From the NCBI GenBank assembly GCA_045116295.1, contig JBGULQ010000008.1, positions 13,147-77,146 of the forward strand: 64,000 nt of DNA, given 5' to 3'. This document shows, piece by piece, positions 47,187-64,000 of the stretch. The notes below the pieces were generated by a model. The model did not search any database. It was not told the origin of the DNA and saw nothing but the letters and a program-made list of their open reading frames with translations. The first letter of the stretch is position 1. Every line of letters starts with the position of its first letter. Origin of the DNA: Alphaproteobacteria bacterium (GTDB lineage: Bacteria; Pseudomonadota; Alphaproteobacteria; RF32; CAG-239). A program made the position numbers and the translations under genes.

Positions 47187-48005
47187 TTATACAGATAAGA
47201 CTTCTGATTTGGCTTTTATAAAGAAATAGACAGCTTGGTTAATCGGAGTTACGTGAGAGCCATTATATAATCCGCTCGAAACACTGACCGAACTGGTACG
47301 TCCTTTGGTCGGGGTAGTACTCGAGCCATTAAGACGATATGCAACTGCGTGAGTTCCTGATGCTCCACCTTCTTGGCATAAATAGTTATTGGCATCAATA
47401 TTAACGCTATCTGATCCACCGGCTTTGGCACCTGCCAATAAGTGGTAGTGGCTTGGAACAGCAGGAAGACTTTCTGCCTGAGTTGTCTGAATATCGGTCG
47501 CAGAATTGCCTCCAAGCCCTCTCAAAAATTTGCCGCGATAGTCCGGTACATTAAAGGTTGTGACACCATTTCCGGCACCAAATTTGGTGCCAATAAGGTT
47601 ATATAGCTCAGGATAACTTTCTCTTTCTACTTCTTGTCCGTCACACAAAAGCCAATTGCCATGGTTGGCTGATTGTGCAGAGGCCTTGATATCGCCAACC
47701 GGCTGTAAAGCATTAATTATTGACACGACATTGCTTCCAACTCGACTGCTCATGCTATCAACTTGACTTTTAGTAACTACGTCACCGCTCAGTAAAGCAT
47801 TGCCGACATTTTTAATACGGTGTCCGCCCATATTGATATCGCCCTGCATGGCAACACGTCCGTCACGCAAGAATGTTTCGTTAAAGCCGGAAGCAAAATT
47901 ATCATCCTCTTCATCGGCATGATCTGAAACAATGTCGATATCATTGAGACGATCTTGTTCCCAGTTATGAACTCTGGTAAATTTTCCTTGTGAATCAAAA
48001 GGCAT
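47187..48005 (-). CDS. phage tail-collar (MdpB-like) fibre protein, orphan
   Basis: 272 aa with MGGHRIKNVGNALLSGDVVTKSQVD (a fibre shaft motif) and NWLLCDGQEVERESYPELYNLIGTKFG..TFNVPDYRGKFLRG (the Phage_Tail_Collar motif). Confidence 0.8.
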   Translation of the reverse strand: MPFDSQGKFTRVHNWEQDRLNDIDIVSDHADEEDDNFASGFNETFLRDGRVAMQGDINMGGHRIKNVGNALLSGDVVTKSQVDSMSSRVGSNVVSIINALQPVGDIKASAQSANHGNWLLCDGQEVERESYPELYNLIGTKFGAGNGVTTFNVPDYRGKFLRGLGGNSATDIQTTQAESLPAVPSHYHLLAGAKAGGSDSVNIDANNYLCQEGGASGTHAVAYRLNGSSTTPTKGRTSSVSVSSGLYNGSHVTPINQAVYFFIKAKSEVLSV

Positions 48006-48008
48006 TTG

Positions 48009-48083
48009 TTTTCTCCAATAAAAAAACCGCCCATTTTACGAGCGGCAGGTTAATAAAAAAGCGGAAACTTATCGTTTCCGCCA
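48009..48083 (-). repeat. leader repeat copy A: two tandem intrinsic-terminator hairpins followed by RBS and ATG of the tail-collar gene
   Basis: A 57-nt core (ccgcccatt...tttccgcca) is identical to 51461-51517. The minus strand reads GCGGAAAC-GATAA-GTTTCCGC-TTTTTT, then CCGCTC-GTAAAAT-GGGCGG-TTTTTT, then TTGGAGAAAA..ATG. Confidence 0.85.
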
Positions 48084-48114: not shown

Positions 48115-48429
48115 TTATTTGTGTTTCCAGTTATACATAGTATATAAAGGTCTTTGACAAGTACATGAAATTGGTGAATCTATTATATTCCATATACGAG
48201 GATGCCAATTAAACATGAGAGATATTTGCATACAAAAATAAATAAACAGCATACCAATAAATATATATTGTACATCCCTATTATGGTACCAAAACCATAG
48301 TCCGCAAAGAGATAATGTCATAGTATAGAGTACGTGATTACAAAAACTATAGCTCCATCCCCTGTATAAGTAAGCTATTAAGACAGTAATCAGACATCCG
48401 ATGTAAAAGGCTAATGTCAGCTTCTTCAT
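48115..48429 (-). CDS. small 3-TM hypothetical protein
   Basis: 104 aa and Trp/Tyr-rich. Its ATG overlaps the stop of an upstream 37-codon ORF (ATGA). Confidence 0.55.
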   Translation of the reverse strand: MKKLTLAFYIGCLITVLIAYLYRGWSYSFCNHVLYTMTLSLCGLWFWYHNRDVQYIFIGMLFIYFCMQISLMFNWHPRIWNIIDSPISCTCQRPLYTMYNWKHK

Positions 48430-48539
48430 TTTTCAAACCTACTACTCGAAAACAAATAAGCTTCTTGATCAAAAAAACTATAATTAGCAAACAAATAACC
48501 TAAAGACAAACCGATTATAAAATATATTACCTTTCTCAT
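48426..48539 (-). CDS. 37-aa single-TM peptide (not in the ORF track)
   Basis: My own translation is MRKVIYFIIGLSLGYLFANYSFFDQEAYLFSSSRFEK*. It is translationally coupled (ATGA) to the 104-aa ORF. Confidence 0.4.
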   Translation of the reverse strand: MRKVIYFIIGLSLGYLFANYSFFDQEAYLFSSSRFEK

Positions 48540-48620: not shown

Positions 48621-48809
48621 TTATTTGATCCATTCATTATTAACGGTATTAGGCACATCTGTTGTTTGTAATTCATTTACAGATTTTTCGGGATTTTGGT
48701 TGGGGGTGATGTAATAATATTCACTTTCCCCGGGTTGAGGATTTTGCCTTTGTATCGGGTGTTTTCCGTTAAAAACACCTTGTAAATATTCATAGGTTGT
48801 GTCAGGCAT
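48621..48809 (-). CDS. 62-aa protein consisting almost only of the shared MPDTTYEY N-terminal module
   Basis: Its first 51 aa differ at 3 positions from the first 51 aa of the gene at 51440. The DNA at 48657-48830 has 7 mismatches against 51288-51460 by my count. Confidence 0.55.
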   Translation of the reverse strand: MPDTTYEYLQGVFNGKHPIQRQNPQPGESEYYYITPNQNPEKSVNELQTTDVPNTVNNEWIK

Positions 48810-48855
48810 TGATTTTCTCCAACAAAAAAAATCAATTCGGGGGCTCTCTTATGGA

Positions 48856-49194
48856 TTACATGTTTGCATCAATTCGCGACGTGTTATAATAATCGAATAT
48901 GTGGGGCCAGTATATAAATGTCCCCAACAACGATAGTAAAAGAAAAATCTCGAATGATATTATATAATATTTTTTGAACACGGGAGATTTATATTTGTAA
49001 TGGATAAATTTTGTTATACATGCAAATAACAAAGAAAAATCAAAAATTACAAAGAAGATATTAAACGGGAATTTGCCAAGGTAGATTTCTATTTGGAGAT
49101 CAAGCAGAAATAAGCTGTTAAGAAACAAGAAACATCTCATATATCTCATTATTTCTCTAAAAACCACACCCTTATCTTTTTTGAAAAATTTCAT
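48856..49194 (-). CDS. small 3-TM protein, paralogue of 50315..50671
   Basis: 112 aa. MKFFKKDKGVVFREIMRYMRC... aligns over its full length with MKFFKKDKGIVFRNFIRDARC... Confidence 0.6.
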   Translation of the reverse strand: MKFFKKDKGVVFREIMRYMRCFLFLNSLFLLDLQIEIYLGKFPFNIFFVIFDFSLLFACITKFIHYKYKSPVFKKYYIISFEIFLLLSLLGTFIYWPHIFDYYNTSRIDANM

Positions 49195-49240
49195 TTGTGC
49201 TTCCTATCAGTCGTCTACATTTTTTAACAATAATAATAAA

Positions 49241-50278
49241 TTACTTCTGACCTTTGGTATTAAAATATGTTCCGCATTTGGAATATTTACCAGCATAATT
49301 TAAAATATAATTGAAAGGACAATCCGATGAAACAAAAAAGTCAGCATCTTCATCAATAACTTTGCAAGCGTCTTTCAAGCTAACTCGTTTCTCATCTTCT
49401 TTGGTTAATTTTACCTTATCCTTATCAATGTTTTTTTCTTCCGCAACTTCACTGATAATCATATGTTCTCTCAATGCTTCAATAAAATCTAACGGAGCCT
49501 TAAAACGTTCTTCTTGCGTCCCCCAATCAGCCCTTTTGTAAAAATCGTTAATATCCGTATATTTTTCATCAGAAGCTCTTGCCAATAGAGCCATTTGGTC
49601 ATTTTCCGCTATTCCTATTTCTTCTTTGAATTTTTCTCTCACTTTATTCGGATAATTAACCATTTCATATCCTTGGGCTTTGCAAAACTCCGGATACGCA
49701 TAAGTATGACGATATATCTCACCCACAGCAAGCCCTAAATGAAAAGCAGATCTATTCGTATCAGGCATATATTTATCTTTCACTTCAAACATACCAAAGA
49801 TTCCCAGAAAAACCAAAATTGTAAAAATGATAGGGAATCGTGTTAGAAAGCTTCTTTGAGGTTCATCAACATTTTGTTTTGCAGGTCGTAAAGCAAGAAT
49901 TAAATGGGTAATCGCAGTAATACCTGAAATCAGATATATACTCCATCTGATTTCAGGGAAAAAGGATATATCAACATCAAAAGTTAATGCCATTGTATAA
50001 AGTAAGAGAACATTAGCCAGAATATACCATGTTCCTGAACTACCAAAAGACCTGGAACGTTTTTGTATTAATGCAGTCAAACAATATATCACAAGGAAAA
50101 ATACGATAATGTATGATATAAGCTCAAAAACACAAAACTTAGTTATTATCCCAAGCAACAAAACAGCTGTTATGTAAGGTATACGATAAATAATTCCTTT
50201 GTAAGAAAAAAATAGTTTTAAAATATTCCCGGAAAATAAAATTTGATTTGCTTTTTCAAAAAACTGTTTAAATTGCAT
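49241..50278 (-). CDS. hypothetical protein: N-terminal 4-5 TM domain plus a roughly 170-aa soluble C-terminal domain
   Basis: I prefer the ATG at 50278, after AAGGAGAAAG. The product is 345 aa. I recognise no family. Confidence 0.55.
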   Translation of the reverse strand: MQFKQFFEKANQILFSGNILKLFFSYKGIIYRIPYITAVLLLGIITKFCVFELISYIIVFFLVIYCLTALIQKRSRSFGSSGTWYILANVLLLYTMALTFDVDISFFPEIRWSIYLISGITAITHLILALRPAKQNVDEPQRSFLTRFPIIFTILVFLGIFGMFEVKDKYMPDTNRSAFHLGLAVGEIYRHTYAYPEFCKAQGYEMVNYPNKVREKFKEEIGIAENDQMALLARASDEKYTDINDFYKRADWGTQEERFKAPLDFIEALREHMIISEVAEEKNIDKDKVKLTKEDEKRVSLKDACKVIDEDADFFVSSDCPFNYILNYAGKYSKCGTYFNTKGQK

Positions 50279-50314
50279 GATCTTTCTCCTTGTGGCAATC
50301 CTATAATACATTAT

Positions 50315-50671
50315 TTATTCATCAAAAAGAGGAACGTATCTATTATCTAGTTTGGAATATGTAAGGTATGATAATGTATGTTTGCAGTAAAGTACAAAAC
50401 CTATTATTGAAAGCAACATGAGTACCTGACTAAATAAGACATAGTATCTTTTTAGTTTTCTGATTTTGAATTTGCGATATATAAATTTGGTCAAACAAGA
50501 ACCGATTAACATAAAATCAAAAAAATAAAAGAATGTATCCCACACATTATTTTGATGATGTAATTCTATTTGATAAATAATTAGGAATATATTATTTATC
50601 CATAAGACACATCTAGCATCTCTTATAAAATTTCTAAAAACTATACCTTTATCTTTTTTAAAAAATTTCAT
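50315..50671 (-). CDS. small 3-TM protein, paralogue of 48856..49194
   Basis: 118 aa with the same N-terminal MKFFKKDKG motif and the same topology. Confidence 0.6.
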   Translation of the reverse strand: MKFFKKDKGIVFRNFIRDARCVLWINNIFLIIYQIELHHQNNVWDTFFYFFDFMLIGSCLTKFIYRKFKIRKLKRYYVLFSQVLMLLSIIGFVLYCKHTLSYLTYSKLDNRYVPLFDE

Positions 50672-50707
50672 TGGTGTCCCTGTGTAAATGAGTGATTTAA
50701 CAATTTA

Positions 50708-51440
50708 TTATTTCTTTCTGTAGTTGCTTATAGAATTATGTAGAAGATTCTTGCCTTCTCCCGCTAATTTATTGATTATTGAGCGTATTATAGGACGTTC
50801 AACATTGTTGCCAAAAGCTTTCATTCCTCCATATGTACCTAATCCGCCACTAATTCCGCCTAGCGATGCATCAACAATAACATCTTTGGCATTGTTATTC
50901 TCATTATTACCATATCCGTCTAATGCCGACATTGCAATATTATTTTTATATATTTGTGATGATTTTACCCACCATGGTGCGGTTTTGGAATATTTGAATA
51001 GGGGAACACGGTTAGCTATTGAACCAACTCCCTCCGCAATGCGCGTATGCTATCGGATGTTCTTTGCGGGTTTGTTTTAGGATATTGCGTCTATTGTCAC
51101 GTGCTTCTTTATATCCACGACTAAAAGCTTCCCCGATGCTTTCTTGTTTATTATTGCCCAACATATTGCCTACCGCATACCCTGCCCCTTTTATTCCGCC
51201 TTCAATCTCATCGGCAAAACCGGCAGAAAGACCGTTTAGGGCGGCACTTGTTAATCCTTCGGATGTTTGTAGAATATTATTAGATATATCTGTTGTTTGT
51301 AATTCATTTACAGATTTTTCGGGATTTTGGTTGCGGGTGATGTAATAATATTCACTTTCCCCAGGTTGAGGATTTTGTCTTTGTATCGGGTATTCTCCGT
51401 TAAAAACACCTTGTAAATATTCATAAGTTGTGTCTGGCAT
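50708..51440 (-). pseudogene. glycine-zipper-rich protein with the MPDTTYEY N-terminal module, split by a frameshift near 51012-51049
   Basis: The first frame, 51440..51012, gives 142 aa. The second frame is open from 51049 down to 50708: HTRIAEGVGSIANRVPLFKY...ASLGGISGGLGTYGGMKAFGNN... I traced the two frames by hand and they overlap by about 38 nt. Confidence 0.6.
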
Positions 51441-51443
51441 TGA

Positions 51444-51517
51444 TTTTCTCCAACAAAAAACCGCCCATTTTACGAGCGGCAGGTTAATAAAAAAGCGGAA
51501 ACTTATCGTTTCCGCCA
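51444..51517 (-). repeat. leader repeat copy B: the same tandem terminator hairpins, followed by RBS and ATG of the MPDTTYEY gene
   Basis: See copy A. Outside the identical 57-nt core there is one substitution and one A-run length difference. Confidence 0.85.
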
Positions 51518-51537: not shown

Positions 51538-51572
51538 GTTCCAGGGTTCAAATCCCGTCCGCTTCTATACCA
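51538..51572 (+). other. degenerate tRNA 3'-half-like fragment (T-arm, acceptor and CCA), inverted relative to tRNA-Lys
   Basis: gttCCAGGGTTCAAATCCCgtccgcttctataCCA compares with the tRNA-Lys 3' half tCCAGGGTTCGAATCCCtgcgcgcctaCCA. The T-stem no longer pairs fully. Confidence 0.5.
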
Positions 51573-51607: not shown

Positions 51608-51684
51608 TGGTAGGCGCGCAGGGATTCGAACCCTGGACCCACTGATTAAGAGTCAGTTGCTCTAGCCAACTGAGCTACGCACCC
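51608..51684 (-). tRNA. tRNA-Lys (anticodon CUU), CCA encoded
   Basis: The reverse complement is GGGTGCG-TA-GCTC-AGTTGGCTA-GAGC-A-ACTGA-CTCTTAA-TCAGT-GGGTC-CAGGG-TTCGAAT-CCCTG-CGCGCCT-A-CCA. I folded the cloverleaf by hand. The acceptor stem contains two G-U pairs. Confidence 0.9.
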
Positions 51685-51791: not shown

Positions 51792-54056
51792 TCATATTAC
51801 CAAGCTGTTTATATTGCCTTTAGCACAGTCCGCAACATCATTGAAAGCACTTATTTGCTCAAAAATTTGCAGTACTTGTTGTGCAGAATAGTTTTTATAA
51901 CAAAAATCGGCTCGCAAGAAATCTGCTCTGACCTTACCAGCCTCAGCAGCAAAACACAGCGGACGATCATCAAATACAAAAGTTTGACAATTTCGCGATA
52001 ACGCCAAATATGTTGTCTTTTCTTGATGAAGTTCAATCCAGCGGCTACCCTTGGGGCATTGAGAACAGGGATTATCACGAATGCACACCGCACTACTGAA
52101 CAACGGCACATCGCTATAAACCGGCAAAACGACCGGCAATGGCGACTCTTGTGCAACAGTACGCATATTATTTAATGTATCTTCAAAAGACAGGCAAACA
52201 CGATTGGCACCTATCTCTTTGGCCATAGAGATTGCCTGAGTATTCAGCGTATAAAGGCTGGCGTCAAAGCTCAAGTCTATCCCCTGCTCCGGCAATAAAT
52301 CAAGCCCCCACCAGTTGCCGATAGTCCATTTTTTATATCCGGCAGACAGAAAAGCAGATATGGAATTTTTCCACGCAGCCGCATCTCGAGCCAATGCCGG
52401 TAAAACTAATCTGACTTTATTTTTGGGGAAATTGTTGATATCCGCAACCTTAGTTTCGCGACTGAGCAAAAATTCTATCTCAGCAAATTTATCAAAGTCT
52501 AAGAGGGCTAAATTTTCGGCGTTGTCAGTACGGACTATCCATTTTGATTGTTGATGGGCGCATGCTTTGATAGCCGGAGGCAGGTTTCCGTGTTTGCCGT
52601 CGAAACTGATTTTTGCATATAACTTGCGGCGTAACTCATTGAACATTGAAGCCGGAACGAATAAGCCGTCAGGATTGATGAGGTGCAATTCTTTTAGGCT
52701 CAATTCGGTATCGCCGGTTTTATTAAAGGCTTTAGTGGCGGCATCATTGGTCTTGGTAATATCTTCGGCTTTAGTAAAATTGCCTTCTATTTCGGCAGAG
52801 AAATTCCCACAAAAAGCTGTAATGTTATCTGATGTTACTTTAACTTCAACTTCTATATCATGACGGCGAATGTATTCTCCGTCTTTGGGGTGAGTGTAGT
52901 TATAGCCGCCTTTGACTTCGCTTGATGATGCAAGGTAGATGTTTTGTCCTTTGGCAATGTCCGGACTTTTTGGGGGCAAGTTTATTGACACTTCGTCTTT
53001 GGCATTAGCCTCAAAAACTCTGCGCCCATTGACAGACATATTTTGGATAGAAAAGCCAAAAGGTTTTTCCTGTCCGGCAATATCGATTTGCAAACCATCA
53101 TGACGGGCAATTTTATGATTGGGCTTAAAAATAAGTTTTCCGTTTACAATCTGTAATACTTTGCCGATCGGAAGCCCGCGGTGGCCTACAAAGTCACGAT
53201 CAACCACGCTCTTATCTTTGCCATGAAGCATAAATTTGCACCAAGGACGTGAAAAAATTTGTTTGATGTTTTCTTCTTTTTGAGCAATGGCTCCCTTGCC
53301 GTCCAAAATATTGCGGTAATAATCAGTAACAGCAGCTACATATAATGCGTTCTTTTTACGTCCTTCAATTTTGAGCGATGTAACCGGCATTTTGCGGACT
53401 TCGTCCTGCAAAGCCATGTCTTTCATTGAAAAATAGTGTTTGTTACCGCTTTTGCCGCTGAAAACCGAACGACACGGATACAAACATTTGCCACGGTTGG
53501 CACTGCGACCGCTTTCCAGAGATGAAAACATACATAATCCGCTGTATGAATAACAGAGTGCACCATGAATAAATGCTTCTGTCTCCAAGTTCGGAATTGA
53601 GGCGATATCCTTGATTTCGGCAAGAGAGAGCTCGCGCGCTAAAACAACACGCTTAAAGCCCAATTTTTGCAAAGCCAATGCGCCTTGTTTGTTATGAACA
53701 GCCATTTGAGTGCTGGCATGCAATTCTAGTTCAGGATATTGGGATTTGATAATTCTCGCAACACCTAAATCCTGCAAAATAATGCCGTCAACGCCGCAAT
53801 TTGAACAAGTATCAAGGCTGTCAATCAGCGACGGCAATTCGTTTTCTTGCACAAGGGTGTTAATAGTTACATAGACACGACGTTTCAAATGGTGAGCATA
53901 GCCGACAAAGTTATTGAGTTCCGCAGCATCAAAATTGGTAGCCGTGGCACGAGCAGAAAAATGCTTAAGCCCAAGATATACGGCATCTGCACCGTAATAG
54001 AGAGCAGCATATCCGGCCTCAATATCACCGGCGGGAGCAAGAAGTTCTGGTTTCAT
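51792..54056 (-). CDS. U32-family peptidase-like protein (long form with C-terminal extension)
   Basis: 754 aa with MKPELLAPAG, ADAVYLG, EAFIHGALCYSYSGLCMFSS and GRSANRGKCLYPCR motifs. Confidence 0.85.
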   Translation of the reverse strand: MKPELLAPAGDIEAGYAALYYGADAVYLGLKHFSARATATNFDAAELNNFVGYAHHLKRRVYVTINTLVQENELPSLIDSLDTCSNCGVDGIILQDLGVARIIKSQYPELELHASTQMAVHNKQGALALQKLGFKRVVLARELSLAEIKDIASIPNLETEAFIHGALCYSYSGLCMFSSLESGRSANRGKCLYPCRSVFSGKSGNKHYFSMKDMALQDEVRKMPVTSLKIEGRKKNALYVAAVTDYYRNILDGKGAIAQKEENIKQIFSRPWCKFMLHGKDKSVVDRDFVGHRGLPIGKVLQIVNGKLIFKPNHKIARHDGLQIDIAGQEKPFGFSIQNMSVNGRRVFEANAKDEVSINLPPKSPDIAKGQNIYLASSSEVKGGYNYTHPKDGEYIRRHDIEVEVKVTSDNITAFCGNFSAEIEGNFTKAEDITKTNDAATKAFNKTGDTELSLKELHLINPDGLFVPASMFNELRRKLYAKISFDGKHGNLPPAIKACAHQQSKWIVRTDNAENLALLDFDKFAEIEFLLSRETKVADINNFPKNKVRLVLPALARDAAAWKNSISAFLSAGYKKWTIGNWWGLDLLPEQGIDLSFDASLYTLNTQAISMAKEIGANRVCLSFEDTLNNMRTVAQESPLPVVLPVYSDVPLFSSAVCIRDNPCSQCPKGSRWIELHQEKTTYLALSRNCQTFVFDDRPLCFAAEAGKVRADFLRADFCYKNYSAQQVLQIFEQISAFNDVADCAKGNINSLVI

Positions 54057-54065
54057 GAAAATATC

Positions 54066-55889: not shown

Positions 55890-55903
55890 GTAGTTTTATT
55901 ATT

Positions 55904-56131
55904 TTATTTACAAAGCTCTAGCTCTTGGCGAAGTTTATCTATTCTGGCCAACCATTCCCAAAAACGTGTATGCCGACTATAATCAACATTTTCAAGCTCT
56001 TTAGCCACTTCAGGGCCTGCTGTAGGATAAGACGGACAAAAGTTATAATTTGTTTTGGCGCATGAGCTCAAGCAAAGCATCGCGCCCAGCATGGGGGCTA
56101 GAATATATGGCAGATTTTTTCTTTTCAACAT
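55904..56131 (-). CDS. o-spanin (Rz1-like outer-membrane lipoprotein)
   Basis: 75 aa. It has the lipobox LCLSS-C and is Pro-rich after the Cys. Its start is embedded in the 3' part of the i-spanin gene in another frame. Confidence 0.7.
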   Translation of the reverse strand: MLKRKNLPYILAPMLGAMLCLSSCAKTNYNFCPSYPTAGPEVAKELENVDYSRHTRFWEWLARIDKLRQELELCK

Positions 56132-56249
56132 ATTTGATGACCTCTACTTGTTTGGTTACAATTTCTGTGCGAGCATGAGAGCGTCCCAGTAAATATGAAA
56201 AAACAAATATTGTTATACAGATACCGAATATCAATGCTGTCTTTGCCAT
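56043..56249 (-). CDS. i-spanin (Rz-like)
   Basis: 68 aa with an N-terminal TM segment (ALIFGICITIFVFSYLL) and then a charged helical segment. It overlaps the o-spanin by 89 nt. Confidence 0.65.
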   Translation of the reverse strand: MAKTALIFGICITIFVFSYLLGRSHARTEIVTKQVEVIKYVEKKKSAIYSSPHAGRDALLELMRQNKL

Positions 56250-56250
56250 T

Positions 56251-56394
56251 TTACCAGAGTTCCTTTATGTTTATACCGACTGCAAACATTACGGCAATCA
56301 TTCCCCAAAGAAGCCAATATATTTTTCGGTGACGCAGTGCCATACGTATTATCCATTTCAAAAAACGATAACGGCAGTTTTTATGTTCTTCCAT
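56251..56394 (-). CDS. 47-aa single-TM lysis-cassette protein (not in the ORF track)
   Basis: My own translation is MEEHKNCRYRFLKWIIRMALRHRKIYWLLWGMIAVMFAVGINIKELW*. The ATG is preceded by an AGGAG RBS. Confidence 0.45.
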   Translation of the reverse strand: MEEHKNCRYRFLKWIIRMALRHRKIYWLLWGMIAVMFAVGINIKELW

Positions 56395-56406
56395 TTAGAT
56401 CTCCTA

Positions 56407-56847
56407 TTATTTGATGTCATTATAGAACAGATGATGGGTAGTTTCATAGCAAGGACTATGATGTTTTGCCCATATTGGAAATATGCTGCGGGTGTGATAA
56501 AAGGTTGCGTTATTGGTAAAATCTATAAGTCTTCCGCTAATGGCCTTATCTGCAATTTTTAGGCATAAACAAAATATTTTATCGTTTGAATTTAATTTGA
56601 GAATTTTTGAAAAATTTGGATCGGTCTTGTTCCAACAGCTGAATTGGTATTTTTTCAGGCATGTTTGCTTGAGATCGGGTATTTTAATGCCGTCATCAAG
56701 ACGATAACCGGTAAACCATTTGCGGGCATTGAAGCGGTTCACAATCACACAGGCAACCGCTTCCATACCTTCAATACCATCGCCCCGCGCCTCTCCCCAT
56801 AGTGTAGCGGCCATTATGTGCAAATCATCCCAATCATCAGGAGACAT
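56407..56847 (-). CDS. endolysin, SleB/CwlJ-type cell-wall hydrolase (Hydrolase_2)
   Basis: 146 aa with the AATLWGEARGDGIEGMEAVACVIVNR motif. Confidence 0.8.
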   Translation of the reverse strand: MSPDDWDDLHIMAATLWGEARGDGIEGMEAVACVIVNRFNARKWFTGYRLDDGIKIPDLKQTCLKKYQFSCWNKTDPNFSKILKLNSNDKIFCLCLKIADKAISGRLIDFTNNATFYHTRSIFPIWAKHHSPCYETTHHLFYNDIK

Positions 56848-57121
56848 TTTTGCCTCCTTTATGTTTGCAATTTAACAAAAGATCAAGTTTGGTTTCAAAA
56901 CTATCAAATTTGCTTTCAAGTTTTGCCAACATTATGTTTTGCTGATTTTGCATCATGATTGCCGAGGCTGTTTCTTTATCAGCTTTATCTATGCGTTGCA
57001 GCACACCTTCCATGCGTTCTTCCAGACGGCCTTTCCAAGACCCGAGTTTAACCAAATTCCACAACATGCCGGCTAAGGCAGCTATACCGGATATTCCGCC
57101 GATTGTGTTAATAAAATCCAT
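56837..57121 (-). CDS. holin-like protein (1 TM plus coiled coil)
   Basis: The ATG at 57121 follows GGAGGTGAT. The product is 94 aa with MDFINTIGGISGIAALAGMLWNLV at its start. Confidence 0.5.
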   Translation of the reverse strand: MDFINTIGGISGIAALAGMLWNLVKLGSWKGRLEERMEGVLQRIDKADKETASAIMMQNQQNIMLAKLESKFDSFETKLDLLLNCKHKGGKNVS

Positions 57122-57160
57122 TATCACCTCCATAAAAAAAGGGGCAGAAACTGCCCCCTG

Positions 57161-57850
57161 TTAAAAACCAATTGCTAACCAAAACCACTTACCCAAGTCA
57201 CCACTGCCAAGAGTAAAACCTGTTAGAGAATGAGTAATTACAGAGGCTATGGAAAAGTTTGATGGAGCAAGCGCATCAACTATGTGCGTCAGTGATATTG
57301 AATAGGATGTAGTTTCAAACGGAATCTCATATGTGCAAGTTGTTCCAGAGCTATCATCAAGTTCAATAATTCCCCATTGTATTGTCAAACCACCGGAATA
57401 CTTGACATGATTTGTACCTTGACTAACAATGTTGCCACCGTTAACAAAGGCTGTAGTGGCAACATTGGGAGATAAATCGTTAAGCGAGGGAGTTACGGCT
57501 TGTAATGATCCTTCAAATATCTTATCTCCGCTTATAGTTTGTTCGGTGTCAGTTGTGACATAAGTCTGTTCATATTCGGCAATAGTATTATTTATGTCAT
57601 TGATGCCTGCTTGTGTAGCATTATTAATAGATGTAATTGATTGAGTAGTTTCAATGTCAATAACTTGTTTTTGGTCATTTACATAGTCAGCAAGATCCGG
57701 TTTAGATACCGCAGCAACATAATTGTCAATATCGTCTCGTCCATATTTAACGTATTGGATATCTGCGGAAGTGTTTAAGGCCGCTTCATCCTGAAAGTAA
57801 ACATCAAAATCTTTTGAAGCGTAGTTTTCAAAAATATTAAGTTCGGTCAT
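57161..57850 (-). CDS. phage tail fibre protein
   Basis: The ATG at 57850 follows AAGGAG. The product is 229 aa with the ISGDKIFEGSLQAVTPSLNDLSPNVATTAFV fibre motif. Confidence 0.7.
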   Translation of the reverse strand: MTELNIFENYASKDFDVYFQDEAALNTSADIQYVKYGRDDIDNYVAAVSKPDLADYVNDQKQVIDIETTQSITSINNATQAGINDINNTIAEYEQTYVTTDTEQTISGDKIFEGSLQAVTPSLNDLSPNVATTAFVNGGNIVSQGTNHVKYSGGLTIQWGIIELDDSSGTTCTYEIPFETTSYSISLTHIVDALAPSNFSIASVITHSLTGFTLGSGDLGKWFWLAIGF

Positions 57851-57851
57851 T

Positions 57852-58199
57852 TTACACTCCTTCAGTAATTTGGAATATTGCATTTTGACTTATATCCTGC
57901 GGAAAGACGGTATGCACATTGCCACTGGCAAAAATAATTTTTATGTTGGCTTCATAAGAACCAACTGCAAGGCGTGAATGTTGCGGAGTAATTTTGATTA
58001 AGGCCTGACCATTGCCGGCATCAATGATGTCTCCTGCAATGTGCAGAACAGTGGTTTCGTCTTGGTCTTTGACATCAAGATATATGTTTGCACCGGATAT
58101 ATCCATTACTGATCCGTCTTTATGTTTGAAACGCATGGCAATATCAAAGCTATCGCCTTGTCTAACCAAAATTCCGTTTGGTGTCATTGTTCCTGTCAT
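57852..58199 (-). CDS. small Ig-like (BppU_N-like) virion protein
   Basis: The ATG at 58199 follows AGGAG. The product is 115 aa with GILVRQGDSFDIAMRF...YEANIKI beta-sandwich-like periodicity. Confidence 0.45.
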   Translation of the reverse strand: MTGTMTPNGILVRQGDSFDIAMRFKHKDGSVMDISGANIYLDVKDQDETTVLHIAGDIIDAGNGQALIKITPQHSRLAVGSYEANIKIIFASGNVHTVFPQDISQNAIFQITEGV

Positions 58200-58203
58200 G
58201 GCA

Positions 58204-59109
58204 TTACTCCTTGTTTGGCATTTGGCAGGCAAGGTCATATCTCAGTAGGAGGTATCCGTCTGCATCTTCATAGACTGCTTCAGGAATTATTTTAAGAACA
58301 TCTTGTGCCAGTAACCCAATTTGCGGAGTTGTACTTCCCTTGAAATTGAAACAATAAACCGTTAGCCCATTGTCAAGTTTTCCGACCGGTTTAATGTTTT
58401 CTTTTAATCTTACATCTGAAAACAACATAAGACCGACCTGAGCGGCAGTACCAAGTGCGTCTCTTCCTGCTTGAATACGTGCATCAGTGTTACTCTGTTT
58501 GGCGGCTGCAATTCTACTATCTGCGCCATGTTGAATATTGTAGATATTCATAGCATTATCATAGCCTGAATGTCCAAGCTGCAACTGTGAAATAATCTGG
58601 CTTAAATAATTGTTCTTTGCATTGTTACCAAAATTGGCAACCAATGCATTGTTGTTTAAACTTTGATTGAAAGCGTTTTGACCGCTCAATACTGATTGAT
58701 AAGCTGCTTGATTATAAGCATTGTTTTGACTGTTTTGCAGATTACTCATTGCACGGTTATAGGCATCGCTACCAACTGTAATACCCTGATTTTGAAGGCG
58801 GGTTTCGAGGTCATTGGTTTGTTGAGCAAATTGCGGTCTGAGACGATCTGTATATGCCTGATAAGTCGCATTTTCGGCACGTTTGCGAGCCTCATCAGAA
58901 CCATCGATTTCGTATGTATAGTTATTCATATTGTTCATATTTTGGCTCATGTTATAGGCGTTGTTGAGCAAATTTTGAACAGTATTATCGTAATTTGTTG
59001 TGTTATAATTTTGCAAATAATTTAAGATGTTACTCTCTGATTTATATGGGGAAGTACTGGCATTGCCGGCACCCAATAGTTTTCCAACTGCTTTAAATCC
59101 GCTAGACAT
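58204..59109 (-). CDS. Q/N-rich virion protein with a C-terminal S74 intramolecular-chaperone (autoproteolytic) domain
   Basis: 301 aa. The C-terminus is FSDVRLKENIKPVGKLDNGLTVYCFNFKG...IGLLAQDV..IPEAV. Confidence 0.7.
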   Translation of the reverse strand: MSSGFKAVGKLLGAGNASTSPYKSESNILNYLQNYNTTNYDNTVQNLLNNAYNMSQNMNNMNNYTYEIDGSDEARKRAENATYQAYTDRLRPQFAQQTNDLETRLQNQGITVGSDAYNRAMSNLQNSQNNAYNQAAYQSVLSGQNAFNQSLNNNALVANFGNNAKNNYLSQIISQLQLGHSGYDNAMNIYNIQHGADSRIAAAKQSNTDARIQAGRDALGTAAQVGLMLFSDVRLKENIKPVGKLDNGLTVYCFNFKGSTTPQIGLLAQDVLKIIPEAVYEDADGYLLLRYDLACQMPNKE

Positions 59110-59566
59110 TTTTTTCTCCTGTTGATTGATGATTGATAAATTTACATTCTTTGGCCAACATGCCTAAAACAAGTGCATCTTGGTCATCTGAAAAATATTG
59201 ACGCATTTTGCCCTCAAGAACAAAACCACATCTGGTTGCTAATGAAATAGAGGCATGATTATCCGGACGTATAAGGGCATTGAGCCGACGACATTTTAGA
59301 ACATTGAATGCAATGCCAAAAATTTGTTTTAAGCAAATCTTTGAGCACCAATGTTTATCCGTGGTATATATACTGATCCATGCCGTATCATTTAACTGAT
59401 AATCGCTAAAAACAACTCCTCCGACAATTTTATTTTGGTGTATAATTGCAAAAGAATAGCCTTTTAACATTTCTTCCGGTGACAAACCTAAACCGAATGA
59501 TACATAACGCGCAATATATTCGCTTTGATCATATACCAATTTAGACAATGCCGGCTCCCTGTTCAA
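59102..59566 (-). CDS. GNAT (RimJ/RimL-like) N-acetyltransferase embedded in the tail module
   Basis: 154 aa with ..CRRLNALIRPDNHASISLATRCGFVLEGKMRQYF... It overlaps both neighbouring genes. Confidence 0.7.
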   Translation of the reverse strand: MNREPALSKLVYDQSEYIARYVSFGLGLSPEEMLKGYSFAIIHQNKIVGGVVFSDYQLNDTAWISIYTTDKHWCSKICLKQIFGIAFNVLKCRRLNALIRPDNHASISLATRCGFVLEGKMRQYFSDDQDALVLGMLAKECKFINHQSTGEKNV

Positions 59567-61088
59567 AACGAAAACCGGTATTATACCACTCTATAAGATT
59601 GCCCTTAGTTTTGGTCTTAAAAACTACTGATGCCTTAAAACCGGTTGCACTATTAGCAATCCATTGACTATGTGTGATACCTTTTAAGGTTGACCATTTG
59701 GTACCAATTTGATGTTCAAGACTACTCCATTTACTCTGATTCCATTTAGTGCCGTTATGATTACCCATGTTTTCGGAATATTCACGTTCACTGTCATCAA
59801 AATCCATATTGGCATATATATTCAAACTAAAAACCGCAGAACTTTTGGTTCGCGGATTTAACATTTGTATTTTTTTAAGATTGGGTGTACCAAGTGAACA
59901 ATAAGCTTGATGGACATTGCCGCAAATAGCAATTCCGTTATCAGAATGTCCTTCATCAAATAAAAATACACCGCCGTCAGAACCAAAGTATAGTCTTCCT
60001 TCATATAAACACCAACAAAAAGAATATATATTGGTAAATCTGCACCAAGCTCCGGAGCTCATGTTGATTACATGTTGCTCAAATTGTCCGCCGACAGGAA
60101 CATTGAATAAGACATATCCACCTCGTGGATATATAATACTCTGCCAACCGGATATATTTTTTCCGGTTTTGACACGAGATAAAACCAAACCACGAATTTT
60201 ATCACTGTATGCGGCTTTACCGGTTGAACTTTCTCCGAGAGGTAAAACAGATGAAAGAGGGACATAACCTTCTTCACAGATGACAATTATGTCGCCCTGA
60301 TATTGCATTGTACAGTGTCTTCCGATCGGACGGCTGATAAAATATTTGCCACGTAATGACCAGTTATCAGCGTTGCCGGGATTGGTACCGGAATAAACCA
60401 AAACCTCTCCTTCGGTAGTAATAAAAACAGTAAGGTCGTCAATACCCTGCCCGCCGTCCTGCGTCCAACTTGCTATGGCGGCAATGCTTCCACCACGGGT
60501 GACCAATGTTGATAAATCGACACTGCTCAGTACTCCCTCAACCTCTCCGACGCCTGATGAATACCAATATGTCAAAGAATCTTTTTCAATATAAAAAACA
60601 CGTTGTTTTGAGACTGTTAGATTACATAACTTTTTGATATCAAGTCCCTCTCCGGCAATGTCAGTATTTTTCCATGTCCAAACGTCTTCTTCATTTTTAT
60701 AGTAGGTTTGGGGAAAATCCATACCATTGACCAGAAGTAACCGATTTCGAAACTGAACATAGTTCCAATCATTATAATTTAAGTTATCTACATCTACCGT
60801 ATAGTTGCCAGATGTGATATCAATAATTTTTCCATTGGCGGCAGCAAATAGTCGACTATTTTGTGAAGAAGAAAAAGTAATCAAACTTTCGATTTTGAGT
60901 CCCAGTCCTTCCAATGCATACATTTTGTATCCGCCACGCAAACATACATTAGTTTCAGACGGATAATAATTATCCATGGTAATAGCATCGGTTTCAGACA
61001 TATTATCAAAACTGTCGCGGCAATTAAGTCCGCCTATCGGTGCCGGCAAAATATAGTTCTGCGATCGGCTAATTGCTCTGTTTAACAT
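59541..61088 (-). CDS. tail tubular protein B-like (T7 gp12-like nozzle), short form
   Basis: 515 aa. The N-terminus ..PIGGLNCRDSFDNMSETDAITMDNYYP.. resembles the T7 gp12 start (..KGGISQQPDILRYPDQG..). It occupies the position right after a gp11-like gene. Confidence 0.45.
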   Translation of the reverse strand: MLNRAISRSQNYILPAPIGGLNCRDSFDNMSETDAITMDNYYPSETNVCLRGGYKMYALEGLGLKIESLITFSSSQNSRLFAAANGKIIDITSGNYTVDVDNLNYNDWNYVQFRNRLLLVNGMDFPQTYYKNEEDVWTWKNTDIAGEGLDIKKLCNLTVSKQRVFYIEKDSLTYWYSSGVGEVEGVLSSVDLSTLVTRGGSIAAIASWTQDGGQGIDDLTVFITTEGEVLVYSGTNPGNADNWSLRGKYFISRPIGRHCTMQYQGDIIVICEEGYVPLSSVLPLGESSTGKAAYSDKIRGLVLSRVKTGKNISGWQSIIYPRGGYVLFNVPVGGQFEQHVINMSSGAWCRFTNIYSFCWCLYEGRLYFGSDGGVFLFDEGHSDNGIAICGNVHQAYCSLGTPNLKKIQMLNPRTKSSAVFSLNIYANMDFDDSEREYSENMGNHNGTKWNQSKWSSLEHQIGTKWSTLKGITHSQWIANSATGFKASVVFKTKTKGNLIEWYNTGFRFEQGAGIV

Positions 61089-61776
61089 ATGCTATTCCTC
61101 CGTCGGATATACTGTCGGTCATGCCTCCTAAACTTATATCTTTATTAGCTAATGTTGAGCCAAAACGTTTACGACATTCGGTTTCATACTCACGATATTC
61201 TTCATCATAAGCAATGCCGTTTCTAGCCTGAAGACGCCATCTGATTGCAAGTTTGACAAGATATTCATCAAAAACAGGAATATCCGTATCTTTGGTAATT
61301 TCTGTTTTTTCGGTGAACAGGCCATTTTCGTACGCGACAACAGAAGAACGATATTGAAAAACAATTTTTATTCCCTCAGGAGGCGGAGTTAAAAAACGAA
61401 ACATCGAATTTTGAATTTTAAATTTAATTGTATTATCATCGTTATGAAAATATTTTTCATGCTGCCATTGTTCGGGACGAATTGAACCAATAATTTTTTC
61501 ATTGCCGTCTTTTATATAGACCGTATTGTTTAATAACTGAAAAAAATCAGGGCAAAATGCTTTAATTAGATAATCAGTTTTATTTTTAGAGGTTATCAAT
61601 TCTCCGTCCTTGGTAAGCTCTTGCCAATCACCATAGCGCAACAGACCATTGAGCGCATCTTTAGCAATGCTCTGAAAAACGCGATTGTTTTGACTGCTTG
61701 TAGTAAATAAGCTTTGCGGTTCTTGGACGCAAGCCAAATTAGCTGCGTCTTGGCATATTTCGAGTATGTTTTTCAT
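61069..61776 (-). CDS. tail tubular protein A-like (T7 gp11-like adaptor)
   Basis: 235 aa. It shows similarity in layout to gp11: N-terminal ..ICQDAANLACVQEPQSL.. and C-terminal ..YLVKLAIRWRLQARNG..EEYREYETECRKRF. Confidence 0.4.
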   Translation of the reverse strand: MKNILEICQDAANLACVQEPQSLFTTSSQNNRVFQSIAKDALNGLLRYGDWQELTKDGELITSKNKTDYLIKAFCPDFFQLLNNTVYIKDGNEKIIGSIRPEQWQHEKYFHNDDNTIKFKIQNSMFRFLTPPPEGIKIVFQYRSSVVAYENGLFTEKTEITKDTDIPVFDEYLVKLAIRWRLQARNGIAYDEEYREYETECRKRFGSTLANKDISLGGMTDSISDGGIAYVKQSN

Positions 61777-62323
61777 TTTTGCTCCTTATTTTTTTTGATT
61801 GTTGCAAATTATCAACTTTCGTTTCTAACTCTTTGATACGTTGTTGGTATTCTTGTTCTTTTTTTTGCCACTCAACAAGAGAGAGATTGCCTTTGGCTTG
61901 TTCAACAAACTTAATTGCAAGTTCGCGTTCTTTGCTGACACCAAGCTCTTCTGCATGTGAAGCATCTAGTTTGGTTAAATGCTCAACAGTATAAATTCCA
62001 CGAACCTTAAGACCGGCAATTTCAGCTGCATCTAAAAATGCAAATTGCTCTAACGGAGTGCCATCTTCAACACATTTTTTAGCTTGTTTATATCGAGCAT
62101 ATTCATTGGGAAAACGCCTTATTTTATCTGGTGTTGCCGGCTGATTATAAACTTCGGAGCTGTTATCTTTTATGCGTATTTCACAAAAACAAACCAACTT
62201 AAATTTTGGCAACCCGTCTTTGGTAATTTGAGAAGTTTTTATTGCCTGATCATAAAAACGTGCAATTACCCCCTCCTCAGAGTTGCCGTTATGTATCACT
62301 TTTTCAAAAGTTGAAAAATCCAT
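61739..62323 (-). CDS. phage hypothetical protein (coiled-coil C-terminus)
   Basis: 194 aa. It lies between the capsid terminator and the gp11-like gene. Confidence 0.5.
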   Translation of the reverse strand: MDFSTFEKVIHNGNSEEGVIARFYDQAIKTSQITKDGLPKFKLVCFCEIRIKDNSSEVYNQPATPDKIRRFPNEYARYKQAKKCVEDGTPLEQFAFLDAAEIAGLKVRGIYTVEHLTKLDASHAEELGVSKERELAIKFVEQAKGNLSLVEWQKKEQEYQQRIKELETKVDNLQQSKKIRSKNEKHTRNMPRRS

Positions 62324-62335
62324 TACTGTCTCCTT

Positions 62336-62368
62336 TATAAAAAAGCGGCGTCATTACTGACGCCGCTC
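62336..62368 (-). terminator. intrinsic terminator immediately after the major capsid gene
   Basis: The minus strand reads GCGGCGTCA-GTAA-TGACGCCGC-TTTTTTATAAAGGAGACAGTAATG. Confidence 0.8.
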
Positions 62369-62384
62369 ATTTTTGTTTTATTGA

Positions 62385-63368
62385 TTATCCTTCATTTGAT
62401 GACGTATCAGTGAAGACTACACCTTGCAAAGCGGCATTTGACATAGTCAAGTTACCGGCCCAACCGATGATTTTATAAATTGCATCTTGGTTGACTGACA
62501 TTCTCTCACCACCGATTACTTTCATGTTGCGGTCTTTATGAGTACGCAAATACAAATAATTGGTATTAAGAAAATACATTTTGCCATCGGGGCAGCAACC
62601 ACCTTGACCACCATCACATACAACATCTGCACCCTTAAAGCGCAAGGCTTCAAAACCGGCATCTGCAAGTCTTGTATCAACAAAACGCTGCTGAGCAGTT
62701 AATGACTGTTCAAACAATGAATACCACTCATCACCGGTGACAATCAAATCCGGCTTATCAATGCCGCGTGTCAATGACATATACATTGAATCCATTGCTG
62801 AACGCAGACTATCAGATGTAATCGTGCCGGTAAGTTCTTTGGCTTTGTTACGCCAAAACTCGTTACCTGCGGTTGCACGATTGATGTTGCCTACGGTGCC
62901 ACTGCTTGGAAAATCAGCTACCAACAAACTCAACCCACCAATTGATTTGCCGTTATAACCTGTACCATCACTGTATACAGCTTCGGCCATTTTATTGCTC
63001 ATAGTCTTAACTGCGTTTTCAATGCGCTTTTCAAACAAATCTATCATTTGATATTGACCAGAATTTTTGAGCAATTCTTCACCGGAAATGGCAACAGGAA
63101 CAGCACATAATTTTAATGAGTATTCGGCTGCGCTGAACAGTTGTTTTGGGGTATATGTAATTGTGTCATATCCTGAATACCAAGACAAGTCACCTTCTCC
63201 GTATTCAAGTTCTTCAATAATTTTTGAACCGCCGGCAAGCATGCGGTTGTGTCCTTTTTCTTGCAGACGTTTTAACAATGCATTGTTGTTAGAAACAGCA
63301 TCTGCAAGCTGGCCGCTACGGCTGGTAAGTGTGGTTGTAAAAATATCATTATAATCGTTATTAGCCAT
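62385..63368 (-). CDS. phage major capsid protein
   Basis: 327 aa. I assign it from its position after the scaffold-like gene, its size, the strong terminator behind it, and general likeness to T7 gp10-class capsid proteins. Confidence 0.6.
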   Translation of the reverse strand: MANNDYNDIFTTTLTSRSGQLADAVSNNNALLKRLQEKGHNRMLAGGSKIIEELEYGEGDLSWYSGYDTITYTPKQLFSAAEYSLKLCAVPVAISGEELLKNSGQYQMIDLFEKRIENAVKTMSNKMAEAVYSDGTGYNGKSIGGLSLLVADFPSSGTVGNINRATAGNEFWRNKAKELTGTITSDSLRSAMDSMYMSLTRGIDKPDLIVTGDEWYSLFEQSLTAQQRFVDTRLADAGFEALRFKGADVVCDGGQGGCCPDGKMYFLNTNYLYLRTHKDRNMKVIGGERMSVNQDAIYKIIGWAGNLTMSNAALQGVVFTDTSSNEG

Positions 63369-63390
63369 GTTTTTATCCTTCTATAATTGA

Positions 63391-64000
63391 TTATTGTTCA
63401 TCCAATTGTGCAAATTGGCGTTCAAGAATTTGTCTTGTGGTAAGACCTGTGTAATCATCATCATTGCTACGATGTCCGGTTACAGAAAAAGCAGCCTCTT
63501 TGGCTGCTTTTGCTTCTTCAGCTTTTGCCAATAATTCAGCCTCATGTTTGTTCTTGTCGTCAAACGCAGTACGCAATGCAGATACACTCTCAATCAGCAT
63601 ATTCATGCCGTTTAGCAATGCATCAGTCTTGGCACTGTTTTCGCTACAAATTTGGGCGGTATTGCTATCAGAACTTTGTCCCATATCAATACCATATACG
63701 CGAGCCAAAAATTGCAAAACTGCCGCCGGATTTTGCTCAATCAGATCCTCTGCCAAAATAAGATGTTCAATCCACTCTCTGGCGTTTTTGAACCCTCTTT
63801 TTGAGCCTTTTGAGCTGAAAGCATCATCAATAAAACGCCGAGCGTTGACCTCGGCGTTTAATTCTTCAAGCGATTTTGAAAATTCGCCTTCTCGTTCATA
63901 AAGATATTTGCGAACTTCAAATGGCAATCCTTTAAACAATTCGCGAATTTCTCCGATATAGGCTTCGGGAGCTTCTGCAAACTGTTCATCAGAAACAATA
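63391..64000 (-). CDS. scaffolding-like protein (partial; frame stays open to the window edge)
   Basis: It has an Ala/Glu-rich helical C-terminus (..HEAELLAKAEEAKAAKEAAF..). The M shown at 63939 in the track is a TTG codon, and the frame continues upstream (..IVSDEQFAEAPEAYIGEIRELFKGL..). Confidence 0.5.
   Translation of the reverse strand, partial: IVSDEQFAEAPEAYIGEIRELFKGLPFEVRKYLYEREGEFSKSLEELNAEVNARRFIDDAFSSKGSKRGFKNAREWIEHLILAEDLIEQNPAAVLQFLARVYGIDMGQSSDSNTAQICSENSAKTDALLNGMNMLIESVSALRTAFDDKNKHEAELLAKAEEAKAAKEAAFSVTGHRSNDDDYTGLTTRQILERQFAQLDEQ

Follow-up and report, generated by a model that had tools for sequence, protein, structure and literature searches.

A probable decayed polymorphic toxin-immunity island attached to an Mx8-like prophage in an uncultured rumen or gut alphaproteobacterium

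A polymorphic toxin family takes its name from its N-terminal trafficking domain, through which it is also understood. Several described systems bear on the locus reported here: MuF toxins, the C-termini of which are cytoplasmic; colicin M and pesticin, bacteriocins that act in the periplasm and possess an N-terminal uptake region (another colicin, Ib, is released by prophage lysis); the SitA toxins of Mx-alpha prophage-like elements of Myxococcus, lipoproteins that are delivered by outer-membrane exchange and define kin groups; and the N-terminal marker families of type VI secretion system (T6SS) effectors, which usually include cytoplasm-acting toxins. Here we analysed a stretch of 64,000 nucleotides (nt) from an Alphaproteobacteria bacterium (GenBank assembly GCA_045116295.1, contig JBGULQ010000008.1, positions 13,147 to 77,146), hereafter the window, in which two minus-strand genes, starting at 51440 and 48809, begin with the same N-terminal module. 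The organism is an uncultured alphaproteobacterium of the rumen or gut, and we consider it likely that its region at 47.2-51.7 kb is a decayed polymorphic toxin-immunity island attached to an Mx8-like prophage.

Judged from its sequence, the locus has the architecture by which polymorphic toxin systems are defined (Zhang et al. 2012, PMC3482391). Among relatives, a homologous N-terminus standing at residue 1 (31 credible clusters) is joined to at least seven unrelated C-termini, and these include the toxin families Tlde1_dom/YkuD, T6SS_VgrG3-like_C, GH108, Phage_lysozyme and serum-amyloid-A-like (SAA-like); a putative immunity gene specific to the toxin lies downstream, as suggested by synteny and covariation; and orphan or truncated cassettes, together with recombination at the conserved part, are found (the window remnant, L003 and P0003). 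The original prediction, made on reading the two window genes, of a polymorphic-toxin type of layout is supported by this range of C-termini, and the contrary expectation, that the module would always be followed by the same C-terminus, was not borne out.

When the window was compared with itself, a direct repeat of 183 nt at 95% identity was detected (48647-48829 versus 51278-51460), which on account of its length and identity is not a product of chance. The repeat spans the T-run, the GGAG ribosome-binding site (RBS) and codons 1-51 of the two minus-strand genes, in agreement with the claim that their similarity extends over the RBS region; the three differences previously counted over 51 amino acids (aa) are E/K, Y/H and R/P, and the seven nucleotide mismatches were recovered when counted as far as the ..QTTD codon. 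Alignment likewise upheld that the two genes are unrelated beyond QTTD and that the shorter one ends 11 codons further on, giving a 62-aa product (48621-48809), and small open reading frames (ORFs) with multiple transmembrane (TM) segments follow both genes, as had been described. In addition, a 78-nt repeat with 91% identity (48006-48083 versus 51440-51517) corresponds to the same leader ahead of the long toxin gene and of the tail-collar gene at 47187-48005.

Both toxin genes in the window are dead, one through a frameshift and the other through a deletion of ~439 nt. The longer gene had been thought to continue for some 190 codons past the module, and this holds only after a frameshift is bridged; there is no continuous ORF of ~240 codons. 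Translation from 51440 runs for 142 codons to a stop at 51012; the remainder, to 50708, lies in another frame, and one extra C is present at ~51043 relative to the intact orthologue at L019:10001-10732. The intact orthologue P0001 (243 aa) is 88% identical to the frameshift-repaired window translation. The tail of the 62-aa product, VPNTVNNEWIK, matches P0006, a 221-aa protein in which the same module precedes a Tlde1/YkuD domain (PF10908, 7e-9). DNA of the 62-aa locus tracks L001 from 9980 to 10186 and resumes at 10626, such that ~439 nt are missing; the L,D-transpeptidase-like catalytic domain is lost, and the last 41 nt are out of frame and lead to an immediate stop. The same truncated allele (P0038) is also present on three other contigs, and an assembly accident can therefore be dismissed for this gene. 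The C-termini had been described as swapped or orphaned; swapping was confirmed, and the short copy proved to be a deletion remnant rather than a stand-alone module.

The 51-residue module was searched against 1.84 billion representative proteins clustered at 50% identity, which yielded 32 clusters at E <= 0.001. One of these, P0029, is a low-complexity repeat protein and was dropped as a spurious match; in each of the 31 credible clusters the match begins within the first 13 residues. The table of C-termini was compiled from this search together with the fetched loci, clusters at 90% identity having given mostly short fragments. Across the family, the shared module spans 51-64 residues (~60) and is followed by a low-complexity linker rich in Q/N/S/T/P, of 10 to ~300 residues, and then by the variable domain. 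Its consensus is M..ET..IL..IFNGQTPIKRQNP.PGES.YYY..PNQ…VDVP…PNP.L., three residues (G15, R21 and G27) being invariant and three more (P18, P24 and Y31) nearly invariant, and the same module, at 85-93% identity, is found on three unrelated C-termini. As read from the sequences, the proteins have no signal peptide and a hydrophilic N-terminus. When modelled by AlphaFold2 with an 18-sequence alignment, the module reached a pLDDT of 77-87, which points to a folded mini-domain, with a helix at residues 4-13 followed by short strands; the rest of the model was poor. The hosts are uncultured alphaproteobacterial metagenome-assembled genomes (MAGs) of the rumen or gut, labelled 'Rhodospirillales' or 'Alphaproteobacteria', from cattle and roe deer.

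The module had no match in Pfam, NCBIfam or PHROGs, nor by tblastn in GenBank phages (50,697 records) or PLSDB plasmids, and its profile did not match L012, the closest phage scaffold, even at E <= 10; it is thus not recognisable as the N-terminus of a known phage structural family, the other outcome that would have told against the original prediction. The small downstream proteins were equally without matches in Pfam, NCBIfam and PHROGs. A Foldseek comparison of the AlphaFold model, which is confident in the module part only, against the PDB gave no match at E <= 0.001, and searches of PDB sequences with the module profile and four family members returned only a Sas-4 G-box (E = 0.43) and a tail-fibre (E = 0.32), the former being set aside as a chance-level match. 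Pfam scans of the toxin proteins also agreed with the earlier statement that no PAAR or Rhs trafficking domain is present, and literature searches produced no description of the module. The module is undescribed in databases; the polymorphic-toxin concept itself is ordinary. We infer that the module may be a trafficking domain.

With Pfam, the interchangeable C-termini were resolved into a Tlde1_dom/YkuD type (P0006, P0019, P0037 and L009:8128-8865), a T6SS_VgrG3-like_C muramidase (L009:10001-10909, 3e-30), Glyco_hydro_108 (GH108; P0016), Phage_lysozyme (P0021 and P0033) and an SAA-like type (L007, L026, P0011, P0010, P0028 and P0031, up to 4e-17); to these are added the window-type glycine-rich C-terminus (P0001 and P0032) and C-termini without a Pfam match (P0024, P0025 and the toxins in L004 and L006). 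Every recognisable C-terminus is predicted to be directed at the cell envelope from the periplasmic side, the set consisting of the L,D-transpeptidase-like Tlde1, three kinds of muramidase and the SAA-like fold; nucleases, deaminases and NADases did not turn up among the recognised C-termini. An earlier study (PMC12419801) presents the prokaryotic SAA fold as the tip of polymorphic toxins, with a predicted activity of lipid head-group cleavage and with TM or lipoprotein immunity partners.

The glycine-rich domain of the long window gene has two invariant motifs, GFxDEIEG and GYxxxRDxxR, ahead of a Gly-rich half. It matched phrog_5880 (function not known) weakly (5e-6), and is homologous to the N-terminal part of a 558-aa Silvanigrella phage protein encoded four genes downstream of the portal. 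It is also found on other N-termini, notably the peptidoglycan-binding PG_binding_1 (P0044-P0049, PF01471), and on the one contig examined a small gene follows the version with the peptidoglycan-binding N-terminus. The domain appears to behave as a mobile toxin-like domain.

Five syntenic versions of the locus (window, L001, L003, L019 and L020) were compared, all bounded by tRNA-Lys upstream and the collar gene downstream, and the set of cassettes between these boundaries differed in all five. The window array consists of the frameshifted glycine-rich toxin and proteins of 118 aa, 356 aa and 112 aa, then the remnant and proteins of 37 aa and 104 aa; L019 has a glycine-rich toxin and a 118-aa protein; L020 a Tlde1 toxin (cut by the contig start), a 100-aa protein, a glycine-rich toxin and a 112-aa protein; L003 an internally deleted glycine-rich toxin, a 112-aa protein, an SAA toxin, a 118-aa protein, a Tlde1 toxin and proteins of 37 aa and 100 aa; and L001 a Tlde1 toxin, proteins of 37 aa and 100 aa, an SAA toxin and proteins of 42 aa and 118 aa. 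The 118-aa and 112-aa proteins are paralogues (43% identity). The glycine-rich toxins of the window, L019, L020 and L003 are at least 80% identical outside their tails; those with the tail ..NKLAGEGKNLLHNSISNYRKK (window and L019) are followed by the 118-aa paralogue, and those with the tail ..NHGISNYIIHRDNMR.. (L020 and L003) by the 112-aa paralogue (imm112), a covariation which suggests that they are cognate toxin-immunity pairs. A role for the 118-aa protein as SAA-type immunity was rejected, as the protein tracks the tail variant of the glycine-rich toxin. In general, small genes for membrane proteins or lipoproteins appear to lie behind each toxin gene and to vary with its type, and from this synteny and covariation we regard the downstream genes as putative immunity genes specific to the toxin type.

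Separately, an IMG/VR contig (L014 5205-6571) carries three tandem 154-aa paralogues with signal-peptide-like N-termini behind a frameshifted, lysozyme-type module toxin, and these look like an immunity gene array.

In the window, three putative immunity gene sets are intact despite the loss of every intact toxin gene. The 112-aa protein is 100% identical to the product of L003:8409-8744, which there stands behind the glycine-rich toxin with the other tail, and, when compared with L001, L002 and L003, the 37-aa protein is 97% identical to the product of a gene behind an intact Tlde1 toxin, and the 104-aa protein 96-98% identical to that of a 100-104-aa gene near it. We infer that the strain would be immune to the toxins of its relatives, yet no longer fires them from this locus. 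The 356-aa protein is confined to the array of this strain; it gave a weak match to DUF6057 only, and no homologue was found in the fetched loci. Gene loss of a similar kind is seen in L003 and P0003, each of which has an internally deleted toxin. The remnant in the window matches the SAA-type cassette of L003 (97%) through the end of the module and a Tlde1-type cassette beyond it, and this mixed matching identifies the module as a recombination point; the repeated leader and module are the sites of cassette recombination. The window illustrates decay into immunity-only islands, which bears on strain coexistence in dense gut communities. The coordinates of its features are collected in Table 1.

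Table 1. Features of the toxin-immunity island and the adjoining prophage, in window coordinates.
Feature	Coordinates	Strand	Evidence or remark
tRNA-Lys(CTT)	51608..51684	-	ARAGORN, Rfam RF00005; same position in L001, L003, L019, L027
Isolated tRNA 3' end (T-arm, acceptor stem, CCA; GGGTTCAAATCCCGTCCGCTTCTATACCA)	51544..51572	+	Read from sequence
Leader copy: two terminator-like hairpins, each with a T-run, then GGAG RBS	51441..51517	-	
N-terminal module, copy 1, codons 1-51	51288..51440	-	Profile match E = 1.3e-27
Glycine-rich toxin gene, frameshifted (module plus GFxDEIEG / RDxRR domain)	50708..51440	-	Versus P0001, L019
118-aa protein, three TM segments, candidate immunity	50315..50671	-	
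356-aa membrane protein, multi-TM N-terminal half, charged soluble C-terminal half	49241..50311	-	
112-aa protein, three TM segments, orphan immunity candidate	48856..49194	-	
62-aa Tlde1-type toxin remnant (module plus 11 residues)	48621..48809	-	
37-aa protein, one TM segment, kept behind the deleted Tlde1-type toxin	48426..48539	-	
104-aa protein, three TM segments, candidate Tlde1-type immunity, orphan here	48115..48429	-	
Second twin-hairpin leader copy, ahead of the collar gene	48006..48083	-	
Phage tail-collar fibre protein	47187..48005	-	PF07484 8.6e-20, tail-fibre PHROGs
Podovirus prophage, structural and lysis end	56407..63939	-	Window stops before far end

In the five syntenic versions of the locus, most toxin genes, and likewise the collar gene, are preceded by a conserved leader of ~80 nt. 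Each of its two GC-rich hairpins has a T-run, and then come GGAGAAAA and ATGCC. The stems stay paired through compensatory changes among strains (GCGGAAAC/GTTTCCGC versus GCTGAAAC/GTTTCAGC), and fold predictions pair the first T-run with the Shine-Dalgarno region; in L003 and L027 the tRNA-Lys terminator itself stands in for the second hairpin. No promoter-like site was found from the leader hairpins to the start codon, so that expression may need read-through or antitermination. An Rfam scan of the window returned tmRNA and tRNA only, and no family for the leader. The GC content of the island is 29-32%, versus ~40% around it. Flanked by the tRNA-Lys terminator on one side and the toxin leader on the other, the isolated tRNA 3' end is oriented opposite to tRNA-Lys; it occurs once in the window, no tRNA gene was called there, and it may represent a scar of integration.

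The prophage genes at 56407-63939 specify a major head protein (phrog_9953, 1.9e-102), a tail protein, a phrog_5107 protein and a GNAT, and further an S74 fibre, a BppU-like protein, a gp53-like fibre and a SleB-type lysin. Its head protein shares 44% identity with that of Myxococcus phage Mx8, 27% with those of the Brucella phage records and 75% with that of the human-faecal phage scaffold L012, which shows the same structural gene set in unchanged order and has its collar gene within the fibre cluster; on these comparisons the prophage is assigned to the Mx8/Brucella-Tb-like podovirus type. A Bartonella gene transfer agent or RcGTA was considered and dropped, the cluster being Mx8/Brucella-Tb-like and the hosts rumen MAGs, as was a tailocin or extracellular contractile injection system (eCIS), since a capsid (major head protein) gene is present and no sheath or tube matches were obtained. 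The collar homologues of L012 (2996-3742) and L009 (3180-3539) lie between the S74 fibre and BppU-like genes, and because the L012 homologue is inside the fibre cluster, the window collar gene is regarded as displaced; it stands ~8 kb from the fibre cluster at 57852-59109, past the lysis genes, an ABC transporter, a U32 peptidase, tRNA-Lys and the toxin array.

Other lineages differ in how the cassettes relate to phage genes. In L009 the toxin array directly follows the holin, lysozyme and spanin-like genes of a homologous prophage, and in L004 it lies between a CI-type repressor and a terminase. Three IMG/VR viral contigs (L014-L016), which were found with a hand-made degenerate DNA pattern (an IMG/VR scan with back-translated peptides gave no match), have one cassette directly after the phrog_5107 homologue, inside the late operon, and L014 has a second, frameshifted cassette directly after the portal gene. 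L005, L006/L025, L007 and L008, L010 and L018 have housekeeping genes only within 10 kb. About four of the nine lineages, including that of the window, are linked to the same phage type, an association that is enriched and not universal.

The block at 51792-57133 was also conspicuous: its lysis genes, ABC transporter and U32 peptidase are 95-100% identical at the protein level to those of L019 4117-9473, and the flanking housekeeping genes (MetK 79%, Lnt 72%, flavodoxin 77%) and tail fibres (73-87%) are much more diverged. The block appears to have been recently exchanged and may be cargo of a mobile element.

Regarding delivery, we tentatively favour a route, still far from assured, in which release by lysis is followed by module-dependent crossing of the outer membrane. 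Toxins lacking an export signal would be set free when the linked prophage lyses the cell, and the folded module and flexible linker would then take the toxin over the outer membrane of the target and into the periplasm. This route is preferred because the proteins have no export signal and their payloads need only reach the periplasm, and because the module-plus-linker layout resembles that of colicin M and pesticin and, in at least one lineage, a lysis cassette adjoins the toxin cassettes. Release by prophage lysis would parallel that of colicin Ib. Several points weigh against it and against the island as a toxin-immunity locus. Toxicity, immunity and export are putative for every family member, and several C-termini, including the glycine-rich domain of the window, have no match of known activity in Pfam, PHROGs or the PDB. 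The trafficking role of the module, which matches nothing characterised, is suggested by its position and conservation; at ~60 residues it is far smaller than the translocation-plus-receptor region of a colicin or pyocin, and the helix predicted for residues 4-13 is unlike a TonB box. Since about five of the nine lineages have no phage genes within 10 kb, phage lysis is not a universal release route. A T6SS could be encoded elsewhere in these genomes, and the frameshift at ~51043 might be an assembly error.

A broader proposal, which we hold to be rather doubtful, is that the module is a new Gram-negative delivery device that either docks toxins on or in Mx8-like podovirus particles or, alone, crosses a foreign outer membrane. 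If the docking version were true, a temperate phage would double as a toxin-injection vehicle whose lysogens carry the antidotes; if the uptake version were true, the module would be the smallest known bacteriocin uptake domain. The module recurs in one temperate podovirus group of never-cultured rumen or gut alphaproteobacteria, and were it shown to load phage particles or to cross the outer membrane, this would amount to a new route of interbacterial killing and would supply a portable tag of very small size with which enzymes could be brought to the periplasm.

It is unlikely, in our judgement, that the module proteins are virion components, namely ejection proteins or tail-associated lysins which the module anchors within or on the Mx8-like podovirus particle. 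Envelope-degrading C-termini would then aid entry of the phage DNA or, as has been proposed for MuF toxins, reach target cells as particle-borne toxins, an extension to which we give the same low standing, as we do to loading onto phage particles as the delivery route. The position of the L014-L016 cassettes in the late structural operon, after the phrog_5107 gene and after the portal gene, favours such a role, as do the leader common to the toxin genes and the tail-collar gene, the peptidoglycan hydrolase domains typical of virion-associated lysins, the homology of the glycine-rich domain to the Silvanigrella phage protein near a portal, and the predicted folding of the module by AlphaFold. 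So does the fragment P0041 (L017 894-1205, cut by the contig end), in which the module is joined directly to a Phage_Mu_F core motif (YIWRTCGDDKVRAQHQSRDGQIF..) with a score of 29.4 bits against a cut-off of 29.6. The Phage_Mu_F match is located downstream of the module, and P0041 is the sole hint of the module preceding a phage head-morphogenesis domain; that the module is the N-terminal half of the MuF domain was considered and dropped, as the characteristic motif is absent and the P0041 match begins after the module. However, the module profile was without a match in L012, in PHROGs and, by tblastn, in the GenBank phage records, and the cassettes of some five lineages have no phage genes within 10 kb. 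Tandem, differing cassettes with covarying membrane proteins, and decayed toxins that keep their neighbours, would be unexpected for structural proteins, and injected enzymes that destroy lipid or peptidoglycan would damage the prospective host, to the harm of the phage.

Equally, we find it improbable that these are contact-dependent effectors, most plausibly of a T6SS encoded elsewhere, with the module acting as a marker or adaptor-binding domain like MIX, FIX or RIX; a secretion system elsewhere in the genome, such as a T6SS, is accordingly given little weight as the delivery route. The Tlde1_dom and T6SS_VgrG3-like_C families bear the names of T6SS effectors, and small proteins with a conserved N-terminal domain and no signal peptide, in scattered orphan islands, are what many T6SS effectors look like. 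Against this, Pfam found no PAAR, VgrG, Hcp, DUF4123, DUF1795, MIX or Rhs in the toxin proteins, and no T6SS gene was recognised beside the cassettes in the fetched loci or among the scanned window genes, a check that was not exhaustive; no cytoplasm-acting toxin (nuclease or NADase) is among the recognised C-termini, and envelope-acting toxin domains are common to many delivery routes. Finally, local duplication debris, with a functionless shared start and both ORFs meaningless pseudogene fragments, would suit the defects of both window copies and the 95% identity of their DNA, but is highly improbable given that the module protein is conserved down to 35-50% identity across many lineages, retains its invariant and nearly invariant residues, and is always N-terminal in otherwise intact proteins with recognisable toxin domains.

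Three further features of the window, remote from the island, were recorded. A region of low GC (15001-18000; 29-32% versus ~40%) includes a gene (15269-17485) for a 738-aa protein in which a family-2 glycosyltransferase is fused to a CDP-glycerol glycerophosphotransferase; the gene is probably a surface-polymer gene gained by horizontal transfer. A 1293-aa ORF on the minus strand (23894-27775) gave composition-biased Pfam matches to unrelated eukaryotic families, no single domain passing, and its product is probably a repetitive or low-complexity protein. At 19963-20317 (plus strand) the window encodes a tmRNA of the permuted, two-piece alphaproteobacterial kind, with the tag ANDNELAPVALAA, in keeping with an alphaproteobacterial origin of this DNA.

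Set beside the known systems, the island resembles the MuF toxins of temperate phages (Jamet et al. 2017, PMC5576092; PMC12226406) in being prophage-encoded and in combining a conserved N-terminus with variable C-terminal toxins and adjacent immunity. One copy, that of L014 behind the portal gene, occupies the usual MuF position beside head-morphogenesis genes, other copies lying after tail or lysis genes or outside prophages; one fragment has a MuF-like motif. In contrast to MuF, the N-terminus here is of ~60 residues, PF04233 was not matched in the window proteins or intact relatives, the hosts are Gram-negative alphaproteobacteria, the C-termini are predicted to be envelope-directed, and many loci are outside prophages.

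With colicin M and pesticin the module family has in common the lack of a signal peptide, a conserved N-terminus, a flexible linker and an adjacent gene for membrane or periplasmic immunity; the C-terminal toxins are alike in being lysozyme, lipid-II-directed or membrane-directed, and the cassettes can lie near a lysis cassette (L009). The module, however, has no Pfam or PDB sequence relation to colicins, pyocins or pesticin and is far shorter, and its proteins lack a separate receptor-binding domain and a recognisable TonB or Tol box. With T6SS effectors (Tlde1, VgrG3 and the MIX/FIX/RIX proteins; PMC9638812) some toxin folds are shared, as is the marking of a scattered polymorphic class by a short N-terminal domain, whereas no T6SS component or known marker motif was found in the toxins or examined flanks, and the module is unrelated in sequence.

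Like the module family, the broken-hairpin toxins (Burroughs et al. 2025, PMC12419801) have a short beta-rich domain fused to many envelope toxins, including SAA-like and lysozyme types, lack a signal peptide and a linked secretion system, and their domain has been proposed to be the trafficking device itself. By their description (PMC12419801), that domain is C-terminal and the toxins lack immunity genes, whereas the module is N-terminal and always has immunity-like genes adjacent to it. SitA is similar in that polymorphic toxin-immunity cassettes are spread by prophage-like elements, but the module proteins have neither a lipobox nor a signal peptide.

The defining feature of each of four named trafficking classes (MuF, colicin-type, eCIS cargo and phage fibre anchor) is absent here. 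By analogy, the nearest systems would be the MuF phage toxins (PMC5576092), the periplasm-acting bacteriocins and the broken-hairpin toxins (PMC12419801); what is new here is an undescribed N-terminal module with envelope-restricted payloads and an unusual phage association, of which the window copy is a decayed example.

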